NCBI GenBank assembly: GCA_963845355.1
Contig: CAWJRV010000053.1
Span: 14,156-78,155 of the forward strand
DNA from: an uncultured Actinomycetes bacterium
GTDB lineage: Bacteria; Actinomycetota; Thermoleophilia; UBA2241
Reading direction: 5' to 3'
Length of the DNA: 64,000 nt
Under the pieces are notes generated by a model. It worked only from the letters and a program-made list of their open reading frames with translations, ran no database searches and was not told the origin of the DNA. The translations under genes were made by a program, and so were the position numbers. Shown in pieces: positions 3,926-35,371 of this stretch (positions are counted from its first letter, which is position 1; each line of letters begins with the position of its first letter).

Positions 3926-3961
3926 CGTCGCCGGCCGCACACCGCGGGGCAAGGGCATATG

Positions 3962-3989
3962 TTGAGATAAGCTCACTATGCGGTAGACT
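3962..3989 (+). promoter_or_regulatory. putative sigma-70-type promoter of the marR-ABC exporter operon
   Basis: TTGAGA (3962-3967), a 16-nt spacer, then TAGACT (3984-3989), in one of the few AT-rich patches. TGAG/CTCA and TTGAG/CTCAA inverted motifs overlap it. Confidence 0.3.
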
Positions 3990-4086
3990 CAATTTCGTTA
4001 TCGACTCCAGAGACTCCCGCGAGGCACAGCCATGACGACGACAGGACCCCCCAGCCGCCACCGACCTCACCGCGCAGCTCACCGAG

Positions 4087-10126: not shown

Positions 10127-10900
10127 TCACACCGAGCGCTGATAAGAGCGGAAGGCCCGCGTGGCCAGGAGCGTGCAGACCACCGCGAAGACCAGTAGAT
10201 AGAGCGTGTCCGCCATCACGCCACTCGACGACGCGCCGCTCATGAGCGACGTGCGCCCCGCCTGGATGGCCCAGTTGGCCGGGTTGTAGCGGGCGATGTC
10301 CTGGATCCACTGCGGCGCCAGGTTCTGCTGCAAGAAAGCCGACGACAGGAAGATCAACGGCAGCAGCATCATGTTGACCACGGCGATGACCGACTCCTCC
10401 TTGCGCAGCAGCAGCGCGACGCCGTTCGACAGAGAGGCGACACCGATCGACAGCAGGGTCGAGACGACGATCAGCATGACGGCGCCGGCCACGCCGCCGC
10501 CGAACCGCCCTCCGACGAGCAGCGCCAGGCCCACGATGATGAGGGTCTGGATGAGGATCGTGAGCACCTGCGGTGTGACGCGGCCGAGCATGATCGCGCC
10601 GCGGCTGGTAGGCGCCACCAGAAAGCGGTCCATGACGCCGCGGTCGAGGTCGTCGATCATGCCCATGCCGCTCCAGCCGCCCGCGAACATGGCGCTCATC
10701 ACCACGATGCCGGGCGTGAGGAACGTGATGTACGAGTTGGTCGTGAACCCCGGGATCTCGACGACCTTCTTGAACAAGGCGCCGAACAGGAGCAGGTAGA
10801 CGATCGGCTGGAACAGCGAGAGGGCCACAAACCAGGGCTGGCGCAGAAAGTTGCGCACCTGGCGGAGCGTCAGGTGATAGGTATGTCGCAGCGCTGTCAT
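10127..10900 (-). CDS. ABC-2 type exporter permease (DrrB-like)
   Basis: 257 aa with six predicted helices and ABC-2 family appearance. Its start overlaps the stop of the upstream ATPase gene. Confidence 0.8.
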   Translation of the reverse strand: MTALRHTYHLTLRQVRNFLRQPWFVALSLFQPIVYLLLFGALFKKVVEIPGFTTNSYITFLTPGIVVMSAMFAGGWSGMGMIDDLDRGVMDRFLVAPTSRGAIMLGRVTPQVLTILIQTLIIVGLALLVGGRFGGGVAGAVMLIVVSTLLSIGVASLSNGVALLLRKEESVIAVVNMMLLPLIFLSSAFLQQNLAPQWIQDIARYNPANWAIQAGRTSLMSGASSSGVMADTLYLLVFAVVCTLLATRAFRSYQRSV

Positions 10901-11877
10901 CGGGTGACCTCCGCGGTCGTGTCGGCCTGCTCGAAGCGGCGGCCGGTATGCATGAGATAGACGTCGTCGAGCGAAGGCCGGGCGACGGTGACCGAGACGA
11001 CGCTCACGCCGTGGGCCTCGAGGGCCTGCAGCACCACCGGCACGGCGCGCGCACCGTTGTCGGCGCGGGCGTGCAGCAGGCGGCCCTCGGCGACGACCAC
11101 GTCGTGGACGTCGGCGATCTGCGCCAGCGCAGCGGCGACGCGTCCGTTGGTCTCGGGCTCGCCGAGCTCGACGTGCACGGCATCGCCGTGCAGCTCGCTC
11201 TTCAGCTCGTCGGGCGAGCCGAGCGCCACGACCTTGCCCTCGTCTACGATCGCGAGGCGTCGCGCCAGCCGGTCGGCCTCTTCCAGGTAATGCGTGGTGA
11301 GCAGGATCGTGAGCCCCTCTTCATTGGCGAGCCGCTCGATCTCGGTCCACATGTCGGCCCGCGCCTCGGGGTCGAGACCGGTCGTCGGTTCGTCCAGAAA
11401 GAGCACATCGGGACGATGCACGAGCCCCATGGCGACGTCGAGCTTGCGTTGCATGCCGCCCGAGTAGGTGTCGGTGACGCGGCGCGACGCGTCGGCCAGG
11501 CCGAAGCGCTCCAGCATCGCGTCGACGCGCTGCTCGAGCGTACGCCCGCCCATGCCGTACAGCCGTCCCTGCAGCATCATGTTCTCGCGCCCCGTGGCGT
11601 GGACGTCGACCCCCGACTTCTGGGTCACGCAGCCGATCGCGTGGCGCACGAGGTCGGGCCGCTTGAGCACGTCGATGCCGGCCACGGTGGCCTGGCCCTG
11701 GTCGGGCCGCGACAGCGTCGTCAGGATCTTGACCGTGGTCGACTTGCCGGCGCCGTTGGGCCCGACCAGGCCGAACACGCTGCCGGCCGCGACCTCGAAA
11801 CCGACGCCGTCGAGCGCCCGCACCCCCTTTGGGTAGGTCTTCACCAGCCCCTGCGCCGAGATTGCCGTTTCCGTCAT
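10897..11877 (-). CDS. ABC transporter ATP-binding protein (DrrA/daunorubicin-resistance type)
   Basis: Walker A GPNGAGKST, signature YSGGMQRKL and Walker B VLFLDEPTTGLD, plus the C-terminal extension typical of DrrA-like ATPases. Confidence 0.9.
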   Translation of the reverse strand: MTETAISAQGLVKTYPKGVRALDGVGFEVAAGSVFGLVGPNGAGKSTTVKILTTLSRPDQGQATVAGIDVLKRPDLVRHAIGCVTQKSGVDVHATGRENMMLQGRLYGMGGRTLEQRVDAMLERFGLADASRRVTDTYSGGMQRKLDVAMGLVHRPDVLFLDEPTTGLDPEARADMWTEIERLANEEGLTILLTTHYLEEADRLARRLAIVDEGKVVALGSPDELKSELHGDAVHVELGEPETNGRVAAALAQIADVHDVVVAEGRLLHARADNGARAVPVVLQALEAHGVSVVSVTVARPSLDDVYLMHTGRRFEQADTTAEVTR

Positions 11878-11962
11878 GGTGGTACCGCCCTTTACCTGGT
11901 TGCTCGCGGCCGCCGCCAGGTGGCCGCCGCCAGGTGGCCGCCGCGAGCCGTGAGAGAACGTT

Positions 11963-12016
11963 CACAGTTTAGTTCCTAGATATTTCGATTGTCAAACTGT
12001 AATTCTGTGGTATATT
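11963..12016. promoter_or_regulatory. bidirectional promoter/operator cassette, copy 1 (DrrAB-like operon <-> MarR-toastrack gene)
   Basis: Minus strand: TTGACA (11995-11990), 18 nt, TAAACT (11971-11966). Plus strand: TTGTCA (11989-11994), 16 nt, TGgTATATT (12008-12016). 27/34 nt are identical to 18077-18110. ACAGTTT (11964-11970) is inverted to AAACTGT (11994-12000). Confidence 0.5.
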
Positions 12017-12101
12017 ATCTGCCAAGGAATCAGCGCTTCGCGAGCGAACAAGCGAAGCGATCGGCAGGCATGGCCCGTCCTACCCGGTAGCGAGGCGCAG
12101 C

Positions 12102-13226
12102 ATGACAGAAGACACGCAGAAGCTGATCGACGACGTCGGCATCGAGCTTGGAGAGCTGCGCCGCACAGCCGACCGTCTCGACGAAGCCGTGGCCACGCAG
12201 TTCGGCCTCAACCGCACCGATCTGCGCTGTATCGGGATACTGTACCGCCGCGGGCGCGTCACCGCCGGCGAGCTCGCCGAGGAGAGCGGCCTGACTCCCG
12301 GAGCGATCACCACGGTACTCGACCGCATGGAACGCGACGGCTACGCCAACCGGGTGGCCGACCCCAGCGACCGCCGGCGCGTGCTGGTCACCTCGACGAC
12401 CGCCACGCGAGAGCTTGGAGCGCGCGTATACGGCGAGGTCGAGCTGGCCGGGCGAGCGCTGCTCGAACAGATCGAGCCCGCCGGCATCACCGTGATCCGC
12501 GACTATCTGCGCGGCATCCGCGAGTTCTACGACGACCTGGTCCGCAGCGTGGCCACGCCGGCCGGCGTCGGCGTCGCGGGCGACACCGGCACGGTGACCG
12601 GCGCCGACGCGCCCCTGGAGGGCGCTTTCACGGCGCCGCTGGCCGGCGTACAGCTTGGCCGGCTCGAGTTCATCAAGGGCGCCGCCAAAGTGAAGATCGC
12701 CGTCGATGCGACACTGACCGAGCTCTACCGCGCCGAGTTCGACGGCGGTGTTCCCGACATCGTCGTCAACGGCGGCACGGTGACGATCGGTCACAAGCGA
12801 CGCTTTCTGCCGTTCGACTGGCGCGTCGCCAAGTCCGCTGTCTGGCTCAACCCCGCGGTGCCCTGGGAAGCCTCGCTCAAGGGTGGCATGTGGCAGCTCG
12901 CCGCCGACTTTCGCGGTCTCGAGCTGCGCTCCCTCGAGGTAGGCGGCGGCGCGAGCGACGTCGAGATCTGGCTGCCGGCGCCGGTCGGGGTCGTGGCGGT
13001 GCGCATCTCCGGCGGAGCGAGCCACGTGCGGTTGCACCGCCCGGCCGGCAGCGCGCTGCGCGCCGAAGTCACCGGCGGCGCCAGCCAGCTCGTGTTCGAT
13101 CGCAAGTCGCTCGGTTCGATCGGCGGTCGCAACCGCCTCGAGACGCCGGGCTTCGCGGCCGCGAGCGACCGCTACGAGGTGCGCCTGAGCGGCGGCGCGA
13201 GCGAGCTCGAGATCGACATCGTGTAG
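12102..13226 (+). CDS. MarR-type HTH regulator fused to a C-terminal GGAS beta-repeat (toastrack/LiaF-C-like) domain
   Basis: Residues ~1-150 are MarR-like (FGLNRTDLRCIGILYRRGRVTAGELAEESGLTPGAITTVLDRMERDGYANRVADPSDRRRVLV). Residues ~165-374 carry four spaced repeats (GGGASDVEIWLP, SGGASHVRLHRP, TGGASQLVFD, SGGASELEIDIV). No TM segment is present. Confidence 0.7.
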   Translation: MTEDTQKLIDDVGIELGELRRTADRLDEAVATQFGLNRTDLRCIGILYRRGRVTAGELAEESGLTPGAITTVLDRMERDGYANRVADPSDRRRVLVTSTTATRELGARVYGEVELAGRALLEQIEPAGITVIRDYLRGIREFYDDLVRSVATPAGVGVAGDTGTVTGADAPLEGAFTAPLAGVQLGRLEFIKGAAKVKIAVDATLTELYRAEFDGGVPDIVVNGGTVTIGHKRRFLPFDWRVAKSAVWLNPAVPWEASLKGGMWQLAADFRGLELRSLEVGGGASDVEIWLPAPVGVVAVRISGGASHVRLHRPAGSALRAEVTGGASQLVFDRKSLGSIGGRNRLETPGFAAASDRYEVRLSGGASELEIDIV

Positions 13227-13248
13227 GGAGCCGACCGCGGGCCGTGGT

Positions 13249-13650
13249 TCAGGTCGTCGTGCACAGCGGGTCTTCGGGGTGCTGTGCACAGTAGGCTGCC
13301 GATGGGCGTCCGCCGGGCTGCCGGCGGCGGCGCGCCAGGATCCACGCGGCGACGATGATGAGCGCGGCCGCAGCCAAGCCGGCAACGATCCAGGCGTTCC
13401 TGACAGACGCGCCCGATGAGCCGGACAGCGCGGGCGAAACGGCTGGCACAGTCCTGCCTCCGGTGGCGTGCGGCGGCAAAGCCGTCGAGGGTCGTGGCTG
13501 GGTGGGCGTCGCCAACGAGACGGTGCCCGGCTGTGCCCTGGCTCCATCGGTCCTGGCCTGCGCCGCCTGGACGCCCGTGGCGATCACGATCAATGCCAGG
13601 AGCAACGGACCGGCGAACAGCCCGAGCCGTCTGTGTGACTTGATCTGCAT
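13249..13650 (-). CDS. small secreted, C-terminally anchored protein (unknown function)
   Basis: ATG-13650 is preceded by GAGGTGAG. It has a signal peptide (LGLFAGPLLLALIVIATGVQAAQA), a Pro/Thr/Ser-rich linker, a C-terminal helix (AWIVAGLAAAALIIVAAWIL) followed by RRRRQ, and a short Cys-containing tail. Confidence 0.55.
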   Translation of the reverse strand: MQIKSHRRLGLFAGPLLLALIVIATGVQAAQARTDGARAQPGTVSLATPTQPRPSTALPPHATGGRTVPAVSPALSGSSGASVRNAWIVAGLAAAALIIVAAWILARRRRQPGGRPSAAYCAQHPEDPLCTTT

Positions 13651-13765
13651 GATCTCACCTCTGGACGCACGCGCCGCAGTCACGGCAGAGTCCGCGTCCC
13701 GATAAGCGGACGGGCAAGCCCGCCTGCGATTAGACCAGAGACGGTCTATGACCCTGCGGCGACCC

Positions 13766-13793
13766 GGTTAACCCTGTTGTCGCAGGGTTGACC
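13766..13793 (-). terminator. hairpin immediately after the histidine-kinase stop
   Basis: GGTTAACCCTG-ttgtcg-CAGGGTTGACC (10/11 paired), with no U-tract. Confidence 0.3.
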
Positions 13794-13795
13794 CA

Positions 13796-14848
13796 TCAGT
13801 CGTGAGGCGCGGCCAGCGGCAGTTCGAAGGCGATCGTCGTGCCCCGTCCCGGCGCGCTCGCCGCCGTGACGACGCCCCCGTGGCGCTCGATGATCCAGCG
13901 GGCGATGGCCAGGCCCAGGCCGCTGCCGCCGCGGTCGCGTGAGCGCGAGGCGTCGGCCCTGTAGAAGCGATCGAAGACGTGGTCCACGTCGGCCGGCGCG
14001 ATGCCGGGCCCCTGGTCAGCGACACTGACGGTCGCCGCCGCGCCCACCACCGCCAGCGACACCACGACCGTGTCGCCGGGCGCAGAGTGTTCGATCGCGT
14101 TCCTCACGACGTTGCGCAGGGCGCGCTCGAGGTGGGCCGCGTCGACGGTCGCGCTGACGGCGCCGTCCGGCGCCGTCAGCGCGACCGTCACCCCTCCCCG
14201 CTCGGCCATGGTGCGCATGCCGTCGGCCGTGGCTCGCACCAGCTCCGCCAGGTCGACCGGCGCGAACCGCAGCTCCTCTTGATGAGCGTCGATGCGCGAC
14301 AGCAGCAGCAGATCGGAGACGATGGCGCTCATGCGGTCGACCTCCTCCAGGCCGCTGCGCAGCGACTCGCGCAGCTCCTCGGTCTCGCTGCGCGGCGGGC
14401 CTGCCTCTCCGGCATCACCCCCCGGGCTGCGCAGCGCCACTTCGAAGTCGGCCTTCATGATGGCGAGCGGCGTGCGCAGCTCGTGCGAGGCGTCGGCGAC
14501 GAAGCGCTTCTGGGCACCGTAGAGTTCGCGGATGGGGTGCAAGGTGCGCCGCGCATACCAGAGCCCCAGCGCACCGACCGCCACGACGATCACGCCGTCG
14601 GCGGCCACGAGCTGCCAGCGCAGGCGGCTGATCGACCGCGAGGCCAGCTCGCCTTCGATCTCGTTCCCATGCTCGCTGGAACGACCCTGTGCGACGCCGG
14701 AGATGTTCGTCTTGACGGTTAGGTACATGATCACGCCCGACACGGCCACGAGCAGCACGACGATGGCCGTGAACAGCACCACGAGGCGCGTGGTCGCGCG
14801 GGCGAAGACGTCGGGGCCGCCGCTACCGGTCACCATCAGCTCAGGCAC
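13796..14848 (-). CDS. sensor histidine kinase
   Basis: Two TM helices, H-box ADASHELRTPLA, N box VVRNAIEHS, and G boxes DQGPGI and GGSGLGLAIA. Its start overlaps the end of the regulator gene by 8 nt. Confidence 0.9.
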   Translation of the reverse strand: MPELMVTGSGGPDVFARATTRLVVLFTAIVVLLVAVSGVIMYLTVKTNISGVAQGRSSEHGNEIEGELASRSISRLRWQLVAADGVIVVAVGALGLWYARRTLHPIRELYGAQKRFVADASHELRTPLAIMKADFEVALRSPGGDAGEAGPPRSETEELRESLRSGLEEVDRMSAIVSDLLLLSRIDAHQEELRFAPVDLAELVRATADGMRTMAERGGVTVALTAPDGAVSATVDAAHLERALRNVVRNAIEHSAPGDTVVVSLAVVGAAATVSVADQGPGIAPADVDHVFDRFYRADASRSRDRGGSGLGLAIARWIIERHGGVVTAASAPGRGTTIAFELPLAAPHD

Positions 14849-15515
14849 GCAGCCGGTAGCCGACGCCGCGCACGGTCTCCAGCAGGTGCGGTCCGCCGGC
14901 GCCGTCGACCTTGCGGCGCAGGTTCTTCAGGTGCACGTCGATCACGTTGCTGCCGGCGTCGTACTCGTCGTCCCAGACGTGGTCGAGAATGCGGTCGCGG
15001 CTGAGCACCTCGCCCGGGTGGCGCATGAGGAACTCGAGCAGGGCGAATTCCTTGACCGTGAGCTCGAGGTCCACGGCGCCGCGCCGCACGGTGCGCGAGA
15101 CCGGATCGAGCACGAGATCGCCGGCCGAAAGCATCGCCGGCAGGGCGCGGCGCGGGCGGCGCAGCAACGTGCGCACACGAGCCAGCAGCTCCTCGAAGGC
15201 GAAAGGCTTGACCAGGTAGTCGTCGGCGCCGCTGTCGAGGCCGGTCACCTTGTCGTCGGTCGTATCGCGGGCCGTGAGCATGAGCACCGGCACCGTGAGA
15301 CCACGCTCGCGCAGGTCGCGACAGATGCTGAAGCCGTCGAGGCCCGGCAGCATGACGTCGAGCACGACCAGGTCGTACTCGTCGTGCCGGCTGCGCAGGC
15401 GCGTCTGCGCAGCGCGGCCGTCGCCGAGCGTGTCGACCGCGTAGCCCTCCTGTTCGAGGCCGCGCTTGAGCACCTGGGCGAGCTTGTCGGCGTCCTCGAC
15501 AACGAGCAGTCTCAT
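14841..15515 (-). CDS. OmpR-family response regulator
   Basis: Receiver domain (MRLLVVEDAD...DLVVLDVMLPGLDG...LMLTARD) and winged-helix output domain (LTVKEFALLEFLMRHPGEVLSRDRILDHVW...VRGVGYRL). Confidence 0.92.
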   Translation of the reverse strand: MRLLVVEDADKLAQVLKRGLEQEGYAVDTLGDGRAAQTRLRSRHDEYDLVVLDVMLPGLDGFSICRDLRERGLTVPVLMLTARDTTDDKVTGLDSGADDYLVKPFAFEELLARVRTLLRRPRRALPAMLSAGDLVLDPVSRTVRRGAVDLELTVKEFALLEFLMRHPGEVLSRDRILDHVWDDEYDAGSNVIDVHLKNLRRKVDGAGGPHLLETVRGVGYRLRA

Positions 15516-15690
15516 GTCCTGCGTTCTACCCGGTTCGGGACGGCCGACGCAATGCCCGCGGTTGAGCCACCGGCCGGAAGAGGCGGCGATGAGCGCCGGG
15601 GCCCTCCTGCGCCGGGGCCCTCCTGCCCCGGCGCCCGCACCGCCCCGGGACCGAGCTGACGGTGATCACCGGCGAGCCGCGACAGAGTCG

Positions 15691-18045
15691 CTATGCGCCG
15701 ACCGGCGTCGCCGCGGCCGCCGTCGCACCCTCGGCGAGGCCACCGTGAGCTGCAGCGTCGCCTGCCGCATCGCCTGCCGCATCTCCTGCCGCGGCGCCCC
15801 CCGCCGGACCGCCGACATGCCCCTCGACGCTCACGTTGGGTAGCCACTCGAGCCAGCGCGGCAGGTACCAGTTCCAGTCGCCGAGCAGCTCCATGGCGGC
15901 CGGCACGATGATCGTGCGCACCACCGTGGCGTCGATCAGGACGGCGACGGCCAGGCCAAAGCCCATCTGCTGGAACATGACGAGCTGGCCGCCCGCCATG
16001 CCGGCGAAGACGCAGACCATGATCGCCGCGGCGCCCGTGATGATGCCGGCGGTGCGGCCGACACCGTAGGCCACCGCCTCGCGCGCGTCACCTGAGTGGT
16101 CGAAGCGCTCCTTGATGCGGCTGAGCAGAAAGACCTGGTAGTCCATGGAGAGACCGAACAGCAGGCTGAACAGAAAGAGCGGCACCCAGGCCTCGATCGT
16201 GTCGACGTGGGTCAGGCCGAGCAGGTGGGCGCCGAGGCCCTTCTGAAAGACGAGCACCATGAGGCCGTAGGCGGCGCCCACCGACAGCAGGTTCATGGCG
16301 ATCGCCTTGGCCGGAATGACGATCGAGCGGAAAGCCACGAGCAGCAAGACGAAGCTGAGCGACAGCACGACGGTCAGAGCGATCGGCAGCCAGCGGTGAA
16401 AGAAGGCGAGGTAGTCGACCACGAAGGCGGTGTTGCCGGAGACGTAGACCTTGGCGGGCGCACCGGCGAAGGCGGCCGGTACCATGGTGGCGCGAAGCTG
16501 CGTCACGAGAGCTCGCGTGGCATCGCCGGCCGGGTCGCCCGAAAGGCTGGTCGAGACCAGCGTCAGGTCGCCTGCCTTGTCGACGGTCACCTGTGCCGGC
16601 CCAAAGCGGCCGTCGCTTCTCATGGCCGTCTCGAGGCGTGCGACCGCCTGCTTGACCCTGGGCGCCGACGCCGGGCCGTCGACGACGATCTGCAACGGAT
16701 TGGCCTTACCCAGCGAGAAGTCCCGGCCGAGGATGTCCCAGCCCTGCTTGGAGTACTGGTCGGCCGGCAGGTAGCGCGCCGTCATGTTGGTGTTGCCGGT
16801 CTTCATCACGAGCACCGGCGACGCCAGCGTGAGCAGCGCCACGACGGCCACCGTGAGCCAGACCACAGGGCGGCGCATGATGGCGTGGGCGAGCCGCTCG
16901 AACAGGGCCGAGCCGGCGGCGGCGCGCCTCAGGGCCAGGTGCCCGACCACCGGCACGCGCAGGGCGTTCACGTGGTCCCCGAGCAGCCCCAGCAGGGCCG
17001 GCAGCAGGATCAGGGTGGTGAGCAGCGTCGTAAAGACGACCAGCATGACGCCGAGGCCCATGCTGATGGTGATGTCGAGCGGCACGATGACCATGCCGAG
17101 CATGGCCAGAAAGACGGTCATGCCGCTGAAGAAGATGGCCCGGTTGGCGGTGGCGCCGGTGGCCGCGATGGCGTCGATCCTAGCGAGGCCGCGAGCGCGC
17201 TCTTCGCGATATCGCGAGATCACGAAGAGCGTGTAGTCGATACCCACCGCCAGACCCATCATGGTGAGGACGTTCAGCACGAAGGTGTTCATCGGGTAGA
17301 TCTGGCCGATCAGGCCGGTCAAGGCGAGCGCCAGGACGATGCTGAGCATACTGAGAAGGAGCGGCAGGCCGGCGGTGACCAGCGCGCCGAACACGATCAC
17401 CAGGACGATCAGAGCCGCCGGAACGCCGAAGATCTCGGCCTTTTCCATGTCGCTCTTGGCAACCTGGGTGATCATCTCGTTCAGGCTGGCGTCGCCGGTC
17501 TGGGCCAGCGTAAAGCCGTGCCCCGCCCCGGCCACGACGACCGCATGCAGCCTGTCGACGTGTTTCATGGCCGTGTCCTGGTCGCCGGCCATGACGACCG
17601 GCAGCAGCGCCCCGCGGCCGTCTTTTGAGACCAGCGTCTGGTCGTGGGTCGCGTAGACGTTCGTGACGCTCTGCACCACGCCGGGCCCCAGCCCGGCGAT
17701 CTGGGCGGTCAGGCCTTCGACGTAGCGCCGAAACGCCGGGTCACCGACCTTGAGGCTCGCCGAACGCACGATGACGAAGTCGGTCATGCGCTGCGGACCG
17801 GTCAGACGCTTCTCGACCAGGTCCTGGCCGATCAGGCTGGCGGGCTTGCTGCCGCGAAACTGCATGTTCGACGTGACCCCGCTCGACAGCAACACGCCGA
17901 GCGAGGCCATCGCGATCGCAGTGAGAACGAGCCAGGCGCCGATGGTGCGCCAAGGATGAGTGGCGCTCGTTCGAGCGAGCCGCTCCGTGAACGACGACCC
18001 TCTGCCTGCCCGCCCTCTCGTGACGCCCTGCTCATGCTGATTCAT
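15691..18045 (-). CDS. MMPL family (RND-type) membrane transporter
   Basis: About 785 aa with two six-helix bundles and two extracytoplasmic loops, typical of MMPL proteins. ATG-18045 (MNQHEQ) follows GAGGGTGGGG; the GTG at 18057 is an alternative start. The C-terminal tail carries GDAAGDAAGDAA repeats. Confidence 0.85.
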   Translation of the reverse strand: MNQHEQGVTRGRAGRGSSFTERLARTSATHPWRTIGAWLVLTAIAMASLGVLLSSGVTSNMQFRGSKPASLIGQDLVEKRLTGPQRMTDFVIVRSASLKVGDPAFRRYVEGLTAQIAGLGPGVVQSVTNVYATHDQTLVSKDGRGALLPVVMAGDQDTAMKHVDRLHAVVVAGAGHGFTLAQTGDASLNEMITQVAKSDMEKAEIFGVPAALIVLVIVFGALVTAGLPLLLSMLSIVLALALTGLIGQIYPMNTFVLNVLTMMGLAVGIDYTLFVISRYREERARGLARIDAIAATGATANRAIFFSGMTVFLAMLGMVIVPLDITISMGLGVMLVVFTTLLTTLILLPALLGLLGDHVNALRVPVVGHLALRRAAAGSALFERLAHAIMRRPVVWLTVAVVALLTLASPVLVMKTGNTNMTARYLPADQYSKQGWDILGRDFSLGKANPLQIVVDGPASAPRVKQAVARLETAMRSDGRFGPAQVTVDKAGDLTLVSTSLSGDPAGDATRALVTQLRATMVPAAFAGAPAKVYVSGNTAFVVDYLAFFHRWLPIALTVVLSLSFVLLLVAFRSIVIPAKAIAMNLLSVGAAYGLMVLVFQKGLGAHLLGLTHVDTIEAWVPLFLFSLLFGLSMDYQVFLLSRIKERFDHSGDAREAVAYGVGRTAGIITGAAAIMVCVFAGMAGGQLVMFQQMGFGLAVAVLIDATVVRTIIVPAAMELLGDWNWYLPRWLEWLPNVSVEGHVGGPAGGAAAGDAAGDAAGDAAAHGGLAEGATAAAATPVGA

Positions 18046-18076
18046 CTGACACCCCACCCTCGGACTGCTGAACGGC

Positions 18077-18130
18077 CACAGTTTAGCGTGACGATATTTA
18101 GATTGTCAAATAATCATCTTCTCGTATAGT
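18077..18130. promoter_or_regulatory. bidirectional promoter/operator cassette, copy 2 (MMPL-RR-HK operon <-> long leader)
   Basis: Minus strand: TTGACA (18109-18104), 18 nt, TAAACT (18085-18080). Plus strand: TTGTCA (18103-18108), 16 nt, TATAGT (18125-18130). The geometry is the same as copy 1. Confidence 0.5.
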
Positions 18131-18475
18131 GCTGACCTGCTGAGCAAAGGCTACCGGCAGACTCCCCGCCGGGCGTCGCCCCAGCGGTGGAGATCGGGGT
18201 CAACTCCGGGAAGAACTCTCGAGGGTGTCCAGCGGCCTGGCGGCGAGGACCCCTGGATCGTTCGTCATCCTGCAGGGGTAGAAACCGTCATCCTTCAGAG
18301 GGATGGCGCCAGCCCGCGCCCGCCCGCGACGGCCCGCGGGCGGGCGCCGGCGGCCGCGGGCCGACGCCCTGCGACCAGCCGCGGCCGCCGGTCCACGCGC
18401 CGTCACAGCGCCGGAGCGATCGCCGGTCGTGCTGATGATAGGCTGTCGAGCGAACGTGATGGAGGTTTCCCGCGC

Positions 18476-19600
18476 ATGACCACCGAGACCGCACCGACCA
18501 CCCTTCCCTACCGCGCGCCGATGGGCGCCGGCCCGGCCGAGATCGACACTCCCGCGCTGCTGCTCGACCACGACAAGCTCAGCCGCAACATCGCACGCAT
18601 GGCCGCCTTCGTGGCCGGCGGCCCGGCGAAGCTGCGACCGCACAGCAAGAGTCACAAATGCGTCGAGATCGCCCGCCTGCAGCTCGCCGCCGGCGCGACG
18701 GGCATCACCTGCGCCAAGGTCGGCGAAGCCGAAGCGCTGGCCGACGGCGGCATCACCGACATCCTCATCGCCAACCAGATCGTCGGGCCGATCAAGATCG
18801 CCCGTCTCATAGCCCTGGCTCGCCGCTGCACCGTCACGGTGGCCGTCGACGATGCCGGCAACGTCGCCCAGCTCTCGCAGGCCGCTGAGCGCGCCGGCGT
18901 CGGCATCCGCTGCTACGTCGAGGTCGACATTGGCATGGGTCGTTGCGGCGTGCCCGACGGAGCGGCCGCGCTGCGGCTGGCGCGGCTCATCGACGAGAGT
19001 CCGGGGCTGGCCTTCGGCGGGCTGCAGGCCTACGAGGGACACCTGCAGGAGCTGGAGCCGCTCGACGAACGCATCGCGCTCACCAGGCGCGATATGGAGC
19101 GAGCCCGCGCCGCCAAAGAGGCCGTCGAAGCCGGCGGCCTCGCGGTCGGGCAGGTGAGCGGCGGCGGCACCGGCACGCACCTGGTCACCGGCCGCCTGCC
19201 CTTCATGACCGAGTTGCAATGCGGCTCGTATGCCACCATGGACGCCGAGTACAAGGCGGTCGGCGGGGCCGACTTCGACAACGCCCTCACCGTGCTCGCC
19301 ACGGTCGTGAGCCGGCCGCGCCCAGAAAGCGCCGTGATCGACGCCGGCCTCAAGGCGATCACGCCCGAGTTCGGCCAGCCGGCGGTGTTATGCGACGGCG
19401 CGGGCTGGCGCGGCTTCTCCGAAGAACACGGCGAGCTCACCCTGAGCGGACCGGCGCGTGACCTGCGCGTCGGCGACAAGCTCGAGCTGATCCCCCGTCA
19501 CGGCTGCACCACCGTCAACCTCTACGACCGTTTCCACGTGATGCGCGAGGGCCGGCTGATCGACGAGTGGACCGTCGCCGGGCGGGGGCGCAGCCAATGA
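18476..19600 (+). CDS. PLP-dependent D-threonine aldolase / D-serine dehydratase-like (DSD1, alanine-racemase N-terminal fold) enzyme
   Basis: 374 aa with a TPALLLD...LRPHSKSHKC motif (PLP lysine context) and a C-terminal LIPRHGCTTVNLYD typical of the D-TA/DSD1 family. Confidence 0.75.
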   Translation: MTTETAPTTLPYRAPMGAGPAEIDTPALLLDHDKLSRNIARMAAFVAGGPAKLRPHSKSHKCVEIARLQLAAGATGITCAKVGEAEALADGGITDILIANQIVGPIKIARLIALARRCTVTVAVDDAGNVAQLSQAAERAGVGIRCYVEVDIGMGRCGVPDGAAALRLARLIDESPGLAFGGLQAYEGHLQELEPLDERIALTRRDMERARAAKEAVEAGGLAVGQVSGGGTGTHLVTGRLPFMTELQCGSYATMDAEYKAVGGADFDNALTVLATVVSRPRPESAVIDAGLKAITPEFGQPAVLCDGAGWRGFSEEHGELTLSGPARDLRVGDKLELIPRHGCTTVNLYDRFHVMREGRLIDEWTVAGRGRSQ

Positions 19601-34532: not shown

Positions 34533-34575
34533 TTGCCAACACCGCGTGCACGTCTTATACTGACTAGTCAGTTTA
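34533..34575 (+). promoter_or_regulatory. promoter with overlapping palindromic operator upstream of the ABC-ATPase/YhgE-Pip/TetR/M15 operon
   Basis: TTGCCA (34533-34538), 17 nt, TATACT (34556-34561). The perfect 14-bp palindrome ACTGACTAGTCAGT (34559-34572) extends to 18/20 over 34556-34575 and overlaps the -10 element and the likely transcription start. Confidence 0.5.
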
Positions 34576-34600
34576 GTCATGAAAGCATGGGAGGTACCGG

Positions 34601-35371
34601 GTGGCGGCAAATGGAGACCGTCAAGAAGGGATCGTCGCGTCAGGGCTCGGCCTGCTGACCTCGAAGGGCTGGGTGTATCGCGACGTCGACCTCGCCGTGC
34701 CGCGCGGCGCCCTGGCGCTGGTCACCGGCCCGTCGGGGAGCGGCAAGACGGCGCTGCTGCTGGCCATCGCGGCGCGCATGCGTCCGAGCGCGGGCGCGCT
34801 GCGGCTGGGCGACTGCGATGCAGTCGCCCAGCCGCAGCGCGCCCGCCGCCTCGTCGGCCTCGGTGAGACGGCGGGCGTCAACGACCTCGACCCGACGCTC
34901 GCGGTCGCGGCGCAGGTCAAAGCCGAGCTTGCTATGCACAGGCGCCGTGGCCATGGCGAGGTCGACGCGGCCTTCGCGAACGTCGGGCTCGACATCGCTC
35001 CGCACACGAGGATCGCCGACCTGCACGCCGCCGACCGCCTGCTGCTGGGCGTGGCGCTGGCCACCATCGACCGGCCGCCGTTCCTCGTCGTCGACGACCT
35101 GCATGAAGACCTGACGCCCGCCGAGCGCGAGCTCGTCTTCGGCCGCCTGCGCGGCCTCACCGGCGCCGACGTCACGATCGTCGTCGGCAGCCTCGACCCC
35201 GCCCTTGCGACGCTGGCCGACGTCGTGCTCGCCCTCGACGGTGACGGCAGGCCATCGGGCGACGGCCGCGACGCCGGCGACCGCACCGCGGGCCCCGGCC
35301 CCGGTGCCGACCATCCCACCCCCGCCTCCACCACCCCCCGCCTCAAGGAGACTGCCGATGCGCTCGCTTAG
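34601..35371 (+). CDS. ABC-type ATPase with degenerate signature motif (partner of YhgE/Pip protein)
   Basis: Walker A GPSGSGKT and Walker B FLVVDDLHEDL are present. The signature position reads LHAADRLLL, not LSGGQ. GTG-34601 follows GGGAGG. The 3' end overlaps the next gene. Confidence 0.7.
   Translation: MAANGDRQEGIVASGLGLLTSKGWVYRDVDLAVPRGALALVTGPSGSGKTALLLAIAARMRPSAGALRLGDCDAVAQPQRARRLVGLGETAGVNDLDPTLAVAAQVKAELAMHRRRGHGEVDAAFANVGLDIAPHTRIADLHAADRLLLGVALATIDRPPFLVVDDLHEDLTPAERELVFGRLRGLTGADVTIVVGSLDPALATLADVVLALDGDGRPSGDGRDAGDRTAGPGPGADHPTPASTTPRLKETADALA

Follow-up and report, generated by a model that had tools for sequence, protein, structure and literature searches.

Why does the same bidirectional promoter cassette stand at two sites of one genome region, once where a DrrAB-like ABC exporter operon and the gene of a MarR-type regulator diverge and once in the leader of an MMPL-family transporter gene? 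The question was raised by a stretch of 64,000 nucleotides (nt) from an uncultured Thermoleophilia bacterium (contig CAWJRV010000053.1), referred to here as the window; the lineage is known from soil or peat metagenomes. An initial annotation had pointed out the two cassettes, here named copy 1 and copy 2, and had proposed the adjacent MarR-Toastrack protein as the binder of a shared operator. Our analysis supports a reading in which this regulator would repress both divergent promoters and a copied cassette would have recruited the MMPL gene to the same control. From the sequence comparisons we give this reading a probability of about 0.6. The coordinates of the features are collected in Table 1.

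The repeat was examined at the DNA level. On re-reading, the two 34-nt blocks described in the initial annotation were found to align without gaps, with 27 of 34 identities, and a scan with the 27-base pattern (up to three mismatches) returned these two sites only in the 64 kb, compared with 0.00 expected from 100 dinucleotide-preserving shuffles. The likeness exceeds the 34 nt noted before. GAACG is added on the left (11956 and 18070, respectively), and on the right the similarity reaches through the -10 hexamer of the plus strand; over 62 columns copy 1 and copy 2 share 42 identities. The window has a GC content of 69.6% and contains four AT-rich patches (3956-4001, 11950-12034, 18074-18141 and 34549-34592). 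Two of these are the cassettes, as the remark on very few such patches had implied. The hexamers, spacings, overlapping -35 regions and back-to-back architecture were likewise found as described when both copies were scanned for promoters. All four cassette promoters, on both strands, score 10/12 against the hexamer consensus with a spacing of 16-18 nt. Six sigma-70-like sites scoring at least 10/12 were detected in the scan of the whole window, five of them inside the two cassettes. The cassette would be a bidirectional promoter of about 65 bp, with two divergent housekeeping-type promoters whose -35 hexamers, on opposite strands, overlap as TTGTCAA.

For the conservation of copy 1, the regulator was used as query against species-representative genomes and 80 loci (given L numbers here) were returned. 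Among these, the DNA preceding the regulator gene of 24 Thermoleophilia loci with full-length orthologues could be aligned gaplessly to copy 1 around GATTGTCAAA. A DNA-pattern scan of metagenomes added seven further non-redundant loci of the copy 1 type, giving 31 aligned cassettes. The check in relatives that had been suggested for the motif came out positive for this copy: by these alignments copy 1 is an ancient element, conserved in the orthologous ABC/MarR intergenic regions of about 30 Thermoleophilia relatives. Three groups of columns with high information were identified in the 24 training loci, namely the shared -35 TTGTCAA, which is invariant or nearly so, the extended -10 of the plus strand, TGTGGTAT(A/C)nT, and the -10 of the minus strand. 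The latter reads TAAACT or TACACT. Its distance to the -35 is 16 nt in one subgroup of loci and 18 nt in a second one, which indicates a promoter element and not a fixed part of an operator. The initial annotation had counted CACAGTTTAG as part of the operator. This sequence is conserved, but it consists largely of the minus-strand -10 and the start region, with the variable spacing of 16-18 nt.

Such a pattern would also be expected if the cassettes were promoters only. They would then be strong constitutive bidirectional promoters, conserved for their contacts with RNA polymerase (-35, -10, extended -10 and UP-like flanks), and copy 2 would merely raise MMPL expression without a shared repressor. 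The best-conserved columns are indeed the hexamers, the minus-strand -10 varies between 16 and 18 nt in its spacing as promoter elements do, A/T-rich sequence flanks the -35 in the manner of UP elements, and copy 2 has retained both -10 hexamers. However, positions outside every hexamer are invariant as well. With columns numbered from the G of GATTGTCAAA as 0, these are T-3, T-2, G0, A1 and A9. A symmetry scan of the 31 aligned cassettes gave the strongest dyad at centre +3, with 69% complementary pairs. This dyad, TTnGA-N3-TCAAA, pairs exactly the five invariant positions, and TTNGANTGTCAAA with up to one mismatch occurs twice in the window against 0.1 expected. Generic A/T-richness leaves the invariant G0 and the TTnGA/TCAAA symmetry unexplained. 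The claim that more sequence is conserved than a promoter needs was thus upheld, since the invariant non-hexamer positions form a dyad over the shared -35; as far as these alignments reach, the dyad is not explained by the promoter hexamers. A weaker alternative dyad of 15 bp, GATAAT-N3-ATTGTC, was also seen. Two other candidates for an operator were rejected. The palindrome TTAG-N3-CTA, located within the 6 variable nt of copy 1 and similar to the palindrome of the Solirubrobacterales, is conserved neither in the close relatives L003, L024 and L086-L089 nor in copy 2. The direct repeat ATTAGATTGT with a 16-bp period is present in L009 and L017 and weak in both window copies.

Further evidence came from the comparison of regulators and boxes across groups. 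The divergent ABC/MarR gene pair is kept in Thermoleophilia, in Solirubrobacterales, where the regulator is short and without Toastrack, and in Chloroflexi with the long form at about 40% identity. Short MarR homologues with 46-51% identity carry a near-identical box of the type GA(A/T)ATATTCGAGTGTCAAA at their 5' end (AAATATTCGAGTGTCAAAT in L039 and L040, AAAGATTAGAATGTCAAAC in L047 and GATATTCAGATTGTCAAAC in Amycolatopsis rubida, L076). In these genes the (A/T)TG of the box TGTCAA is the start codon, and the box can therefore not be their -35, which speaks against an explanation by promoters only. The start regions read ATG TCA AGA... in L042-L080 (Solirubrobacterales), L039 and L040, and TTG TCA AAC in A. 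rubida. In the long-form lineage the same box now forms promoter and candidate-operator DNA, and the start codon follows 80-160 nt downstream. The box of A. rubida, in strain DSM 44637 near position 143,980 of NZ_FOWC01000007.1, is neighboured by genes for an O-methyltransferase and a SARP regulator, and no ABC exporter is present; hence, the box travels with the regulator.

The site also varies with the predicted DNA-binding surface. In the Chloroflexi orthologues the recognition helix differs (SATRMVDRLEQ versus AITTVLDRMER) and a different motif, CTGCGCAGCGCAG, lies upstream next to the -10. This joint change of motif and helix is a further point that promoters alone do not account for. As a separate observation, the upstream element TGCGCTAyAmTnTCTCTGCGCAGyGCAGAGAATAGCCAGG is strongly conserved in the Chloroflexi loci L025, L027-L033 and L038, with the palindrome beside a -10-like box. 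The Solirubrobacterales homologues have a similar helix, TSGAITTALDRLER, but the palindrome TATCTTAG-N3-CTAAGATA. The core of the helix in the long-form group is T-P-G-A, with a proline where members of the UrtR subfamily have a base-contacting serine (T/S-S-G-T), and this exchange may go along with the changed site. Taken together, we consider the explanation of the cassettes as promoters only unlikely. The adjacent MarR-Toastrack protein appears as the most parsimonious binder; the evidence is correlative and points to its MarR domain.

For the regulator, a MarR domain was detected with Pfam at residues 36-94 (E 5.8e-14), and MarR structures of the PDB were matched by sequence and fold. The C-terminal 200 residues gave no Pfam match; DUF4097, DUF2154 and DUF2807 were not significant even at E values up to 10. 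In the AlphaFold model (21 homologues) this part forms a beta-helix at residues ~175-373 with a predicted local distance difference test (pLDDT) value of about 90. With Foldseek the beta-helix was matched to 4QRK (E 1.7e-11, template modelling (TM) score 0.77), and 4qrk_A was also detected with phmmer (E 0.0098). 4QRK is named as an example of the Toastrack domain in the paper defining it (PMC11237479). Thus the name MarR-Toastrack, already used for this neighbour in the initial annotation, is correct, and a fusion of the two domains is confirmed at the level of the predicted fold. A literature search joining Toastrack with MarR returned nothing relevant. Judged from the homologous loci, the fused architecture is widespread in soil Thermoleophilia and Chloroflexi.

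Copy 2 was examined in those relatives which keep the order of the alanine-racemase-N/D-serine-dehydratase-like (AlaRacN-like) gene and the MMPL gene. These are nine loci, L003, L024 (= L083), L087 and L090-L095. No match above 12 bits to the position weight matrix (PWM) of the cassette family was found between the two genes in any of the nine. In the alignment with these relatives the window has extra sequence just upstream of the conserved ribosome-binding region and start of MMPL (CACCCCAC...CAT). The start codon of MMPL is ATG 18045, which aligns with the start of the relatives; GTG 18057 is not the start. Copy 2 is read as a lineage-specific insertion of 64-72 nt in the MMPL leader and not as an ancestral feature. 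The expectation that copy 2, too, would recur before MMPL in relatives has to be given up.

The borders of the extra sequence carry short direct repeats. The CTGCTGA pair at 18065-18071 and 18137-18143 is the only such pair in the window (0.06 expected), the 11-mers TGCTGAACGGC and TGCTGACCTGC, both containing TGCTGA, are 64 nt apart, and the last right repeat aligns with the ancestral CTGnTGA of the relatives. No inverted repeats were found in 18050-18160, and copies of the cassette occur otherwise only in ABC/MarR intergenic regions. Lacking terminal inverted repeats and copies in other contexts, the insertion is read as a one-off duplication and not as a mobile element; we infer a route such as template switching at microhomology.

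To the right of the insertion the old MMPL upstream region is still present, with the block AAGGCTAyCGG...GCGTCGCCCC...GGTGGAGATCGGGGTCAAC common to the window and eight relatives. The minus strand of AAGGCTA reads TAGCCT, probably the older MMPL promoter. In the same set of loci the GC-rich block extends over 18146-18330, with GCGTCGCCCC (18173-18182) and GGGGTCAAC (18196-18204) as core, and the inverted repeat GTCGCCCC-N13-GGGGTCAAC lies upstream of the -10-like TAGCCT of the minus strand. Probably 18146-18330 represents the ancestral region of MMPL regulation, where a dimeric factor would bind. A structured RNA to the right of copy 2 (18144-18330) was rejected, because RNAalifold gave a positive, that is unfavourable, covariation term on both strands with eight lineages.

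An insertion absent from all nine relatives might be a non-functional by-product of local duplication or repair, decaying and without a role for MMPL. Its 42/62 identities with copy 1, the loss of TGTGG and a rightward promoter without a nearby gene are what such decay would leave. The pattern of divergence argues against it. Copy 2 was tested against the consensus of 16 orthologous cassettes of the 18-nt subgroup, with the window left out. It matches 29 of 32 columns conserved to at least 85%, versus 18 of the 30 others (Fisher p = 0.007); the divergence sits in columns that are also variable among the orthologues. The family PWM gave 41.7 bits for copy 2 and 37.1 bits for copy 1. At columns -10, -1, +18 and +28 copy 2 has the subgroup consensus, where the copy 1 sequences of the window and of L002 agree in another base; the duplication therefore probably predates these substitutions in copy 1, and copy 2 has survived since. 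Its leftward promoter is also correctly placed, with about 28 nt between it and the start codon of MMPL. The plus-strand -10, TATAGT, is identical to the subgroup consensus. To the right, no gene follows within 340 nt, and the first one beyond has retained a conserved -10-like box of its own, GATGATAGGCT. With TGTGG lost and no gene on this side, the leftward half of copy 2 is the one most likely in use. Decay of copy 2 is thus quite improbable.

The weakest alternative, that the neighbouring OmpR-type response regulator (RR) or a nucleoid protein silencing AT-rich DNA by binding AT-tracts acts on the cassettes, may draw on the position of the genes for the RR and its histidine kinase (HK) between the two cassettes in this lineage and on the few AT-rich patches of a 70% GC genome, but it is very improbable, since most orthologous loci with the perfectly conserved cassette have no adjacent two-component system, which makes the RR a poor candidate, no conserved direct repeat of the OmpR type (10-11 bp period) was seen, the sole recurrent repeat being that of 16-bp period in some lineages, and the base-specific invariance goes beyond the need of composition-driven binding.

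Repression of the shared cassettes by the MarR-Toastrack protein could work as follows. The candidate operator would lie across and just beside the shared -35, with the core GAT(A/T)(A/T)TTnGATTGTCAAA and TTnGA-N3-TCAAA as best-supported dyad. A dimer of the regulator would bind the dyad and exclude RNA polymerase from both promoters; as one bound dimer would occlude both -35 hexamers, the ABC exporter operon would be repressed together with the regulator gene itself. Derepression may follow from a ligand bound by the MarR domain, or from docking of the Toastrack domain with a membrane-proximal partner. In an ancestor of the lineage, the whole core with the start regions at both its ends would have been copied (64-72 nt) into the MMPL leader, where it has the older -10-like TAGCCT box on one side and the ribosome-binding site on the other. 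The inserted copy would have provided MMPL with a strong new promoter and placed it under the same repressor. A bolder version holds that a module of about 65 bp with two promoters and one operator was pasted in with short flanking repeats and rewired MMPL, perhaps with the two-component system, into a docking-coupled MarR-Toastrack regulon in one step. This version is put forward tentatively, as a possibility with the odds against it.

Several points weigh against control by a common repressor. The dyad spans 13 bp only, its arms of 5 bp are complementary at 4/5 positions in both window copies, and the conserved core is in part the plain -35 of both promoters. No single half-site common to the window cassettes and the short-form group of the Solirubrobacterales could be defined. 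Copy 2 misses three conserved columns, one of them in TGTGG upstream of the plus-strand -10. It was found on one assembly only, exact-protein look-ups of MMPL (two start choices) and of the downstream gene being without a match elsewhere, and one genome scan with the regulator and one metagenome scan with the DNA pattern yielded, beyond the two sites of the window, copy 1 orthologues only.

Other readings of the cassettes were tried and rejected. For an ECF-type (extracytoplasmic function) promoter, as the conserved GAACG might suggest, no suitable -10 was found at the right spacing. The inverted repeat ACAGTTT/AAACTGT of copy 1 is absent from copy 2. An upstream open reading frame (ORF) from TTG 11989 to TAG 12090 (33 codons) is not conserved, and in L007 it stops after 4 codons; it starts at the TTG of the shared -35, ends 11 nt before the MarR gene and shares its frame with a short ORF inside it that begins with ATG (12070-12090). 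A permissive Rfam scan of 11800-18600 detected no RNA family in either intergenic region.

Table 1 Features of the two cassettes and of the neighbouring genes (positions in the window)
Feature	Position	Strand	Details
DrrAB-like ABC exporter	10127-11877	minus	ATPase 10897-11877, ABC-2 permease 10127-10900; Pfam ABC_tran, DrrA1-3_C, ABC2_membrane
Copy 1, whole bidirectional promoter/candidate-operator core	11956-12023		between ABC exporter operon (leftward) and MarR-Toastrack gene (rightward)
Copy 1, 34-nt block	11963-11996		CACAGTTTAGttcctaGATATTTcGATTGTCAAA = CACAGTTTAG-ttccta-GATATTT-c-GATTGTCAAA
Copy 1, putative leftward promoter	11995-11966	minus	TTGACA 11995-11990, 18 nt, -10 TAAACT 11971-11966; ABC exporter
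Copy 1, candidate operator dyad	11984-11996		TTCGA-TTG-TCAAA
Copy 1, shared -35 region	11989-11995		TTGTCAA; TTGTCA on plus, TTGACA on minus
Copy 1, putative rightward promoter	11989-12016	plus	TTGTCA 11989-11994, 16 nt, TATATT 12011-12016, TG precedes -10; MarR gene
MarR-Toastrack regulator	12102-13226	plus	374 amino acids; candidate binder
Histidine kinase (HK)	13796-14848	minus	
OmpR-type response regulator (RR)	14841-15515	minus	
MMPL-family transporter	15691-18045	minus	Pfam MMPL, E 6.8e-84
Left flanking direct repeat	18065-18071		CTGCTGA
Copy 2, cassette	18070-18136		within the MMPL gene leader
Copy 2, 34-nt block	18077-18110		CACAGTTTAGcgtgacGATATTTaGATTGTCAAA = CACAGTTTAG-cgtgac-GATATTT-a-GATTGTCAAA
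Copy 2, putative leftward promoter	18109-18080	minus	TTGACA 18109-18104, 18 nt, -10 TAAACT 18085-18080; MMPL
Copy 2, candidate operator dyad	18098-18110		TTAGA-TTG-TCAAA, containing the shared -35 (18103-18109)
Copy 2, putative rightward promoter	18103-18130	plus	TTGTCA 18103-18108, 16 nt, -10 TATAGT 18125-18130
Right flanking direct repeats	18130-18143		TGCTGAC-CTGCTGA; TGCTGA 18130-18135, CTGCTGA 18137-18143
Probable ancestral MMPL upstream block, right of the insertion	18146-18205		AAGGCTAC (minus strand TAGCCT, -10-like) and GCGTCGCCCC-N13-GGGGTCAAC
AlaRacN-like gene	starts 18476	plus	alanine-racemase-N/D-serine-dehydratase-like

For the exporter leftward of copy 1, the ATPase scored 329.9 with the NCBIfam model drrA (TIGR01188, cut-off 312.45) and has the DrrA C-terminal domain PF13732. 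The permease reached 127.2 with the DrrB-type model TIGR01247, which is below the cut-off of 223, and passes with Pfam ABC2_membrane. In the predicted 5' leader of the operon (11902-11948) a perfect 9-bp stem, GCTCGCGGC/GCCGCGAGC, surrounds two tandem copies of the 14-nt repeat CCGCCGCCAGGTGG. The sequence of L002 differs at this position and likewise forms a perfect hairpin (CCTCGTGGCGGCCG...CGGCCGCCACGAGG). The hairpins in both the window and L002 suggest a conserved leader structure.

According to the initial annotation, copy 2 drives an MMPL-RR-HK operon. The MMPL gene does adjoin the leftward promoter, but an operon was not established. RR-HK occurs without MMPL in L002, and MMPL without RR-HK in L003 and L095. 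In the window, MMPL and RR are separated by 175 nt of GC-rich, hairpin-forming sequence. With modules separable in relatives and this gap, co-transcription of MMPL with RR-HK is doubtful. The sequence CCGGGTAGAACGCAGG(A/T)CATG directly precedes the RR start in the window (15516-15540) and in L002 (13063-13085), which hints at a separate, possibly leaderless, promoter of RR-HK. L002 is the closest relative, with a regulator 91% identical, and has lost MMPL; there, an unrelated minus-strand gene (13090-14410) lies between RR-HK and the AlaRacN-like gene.

A small ORF of ~133 amino acids without Pfam match was noticed on the minus strand (13250-13651), in the space that separates the MarR gene from HK. 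A hydrophobic, signal-like stretch is present at its N-terminus and a membrane anchor at its C-terminus, and GAGGTGAG precedes it. In L002 there is no room for a counterpart, and on the identical contig L001 the gene annotated by gene callers is on the opposite strand. The other two AT-rich patches were also inspected. The third (34533-34592) contains TTGCCA-17-TATACT followed by the perfect 14-bp palindrome ACTGACTAGTCAGT (34559-34572), lies upstream of another ABC ATPase gene (34601-35371) and shares the 8-mer CAGTTTAG with both cassettes; it resembles an independent promoter/operator that would serve another regulator. In the fourth (3956-4001), TTGAGA-16-TAGACT precedes a plus-strand gene whose start is at 4033; this seems an ordinary promoter, with no relation to the cassette.

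If control of both exporters by the MarR-Toastrack protein is correct, a defined operator and two natural target promoters would be available for an uncharacterised regulator architecture. The DrrAB-like ABC exporter and the MMPL transporter would belong to a common envelope or efflux response of an actinobacterial class that has received little study. The locus would also offer a regulatory rewiring with a clear before and after, nine relatives being without the insertion and the ancestral promoter block still in place. Should the cassette indeed have been transplanted, it would be a natural case of regulon growth by transfer of a cis-element and would open Toastrack-fused transcription factors to functional study for the first time. 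If the model does not hold, both cassettes would still serve as an example of strong housekeeping-type promoters in an uncultured lineage with 70% GC.

Systems are well known in which a MarR regulator is encoded divergently to an exporter, its operator covers the promoters, and additional operators stand at further transporter genes. In Mycobacterium tuberculosis the MarR repressor Rv0678 (MmpR5) is encoded divergently to mmpS5-mmpL5, binds the intergenic region common to both, and in addition binds and shifts the promoters of further mmpS/mmpL loci. Comparable to this, the regulator gene described here is divergent to a transporter operon, and one regulator is predicted to bind at several transporter loci, MMPL among them. 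In contrast to Rv0678, a single-domain MarR protein with an MMPL pump as primary target, the regulator carries a C-terminal Toastrack domain; its primary ancient target would be the DrrAB-like ABC exporter and MMPL a recent, lineage-specific recruit.

MarR sites are described as imperfect palindromes of 16-20 bp. For PecS-PecM, HucR and MftR of the UrtR subfamily, the regulator gene is divergent to an efflux gene, and an intergenic palindromic operator overlaps both promoters, with the consensus TxxCT-N8-AGxxA. The short-form palindrome of the Solirubrobacterales, TATCTTAG-N3-CTAAGATA, fits TxxCT-N9-AGxxA, whereas no CT-N8-AG is present in either window cassette. Back-to-back promoters of regulator and exporter with operators over promoter elements are also found in Tn10 tetR/tetA, marRAB and mexR-mexAB, where two separate operators are used. 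The divergent promoters and the predicted use of one protein for both directions are shared with these systems; unlike there, the two putative -35 hexamers lie on the same 7 bp under a single 13-bp dyad.

For Toastrack domains, membrane-proximal docking was proposed to control fused or associated helix-turn-helix domains, and they were found with ABC transporter operons (Ravi et al. 2024; PMC11237479). Like LiaF/LiaG, VraT and PspC-Toastrack proteins, the regulator has a C-terminal beta-helix matching 4QRK. Compared with the systems above, what is new, as read from the sequences, is the candidate single dyad over a shared -35, the dated transplant of a cassette with the ancestral state kept in nine relatives, and the Toastrack fusion itself: whereas LiaF/LiaG, VraT and PspC-Toastrack proteins are mostly membrane-anchored and act via two-component systems, the predicted Toastrack domain is here fused to a soluble MarR domain.

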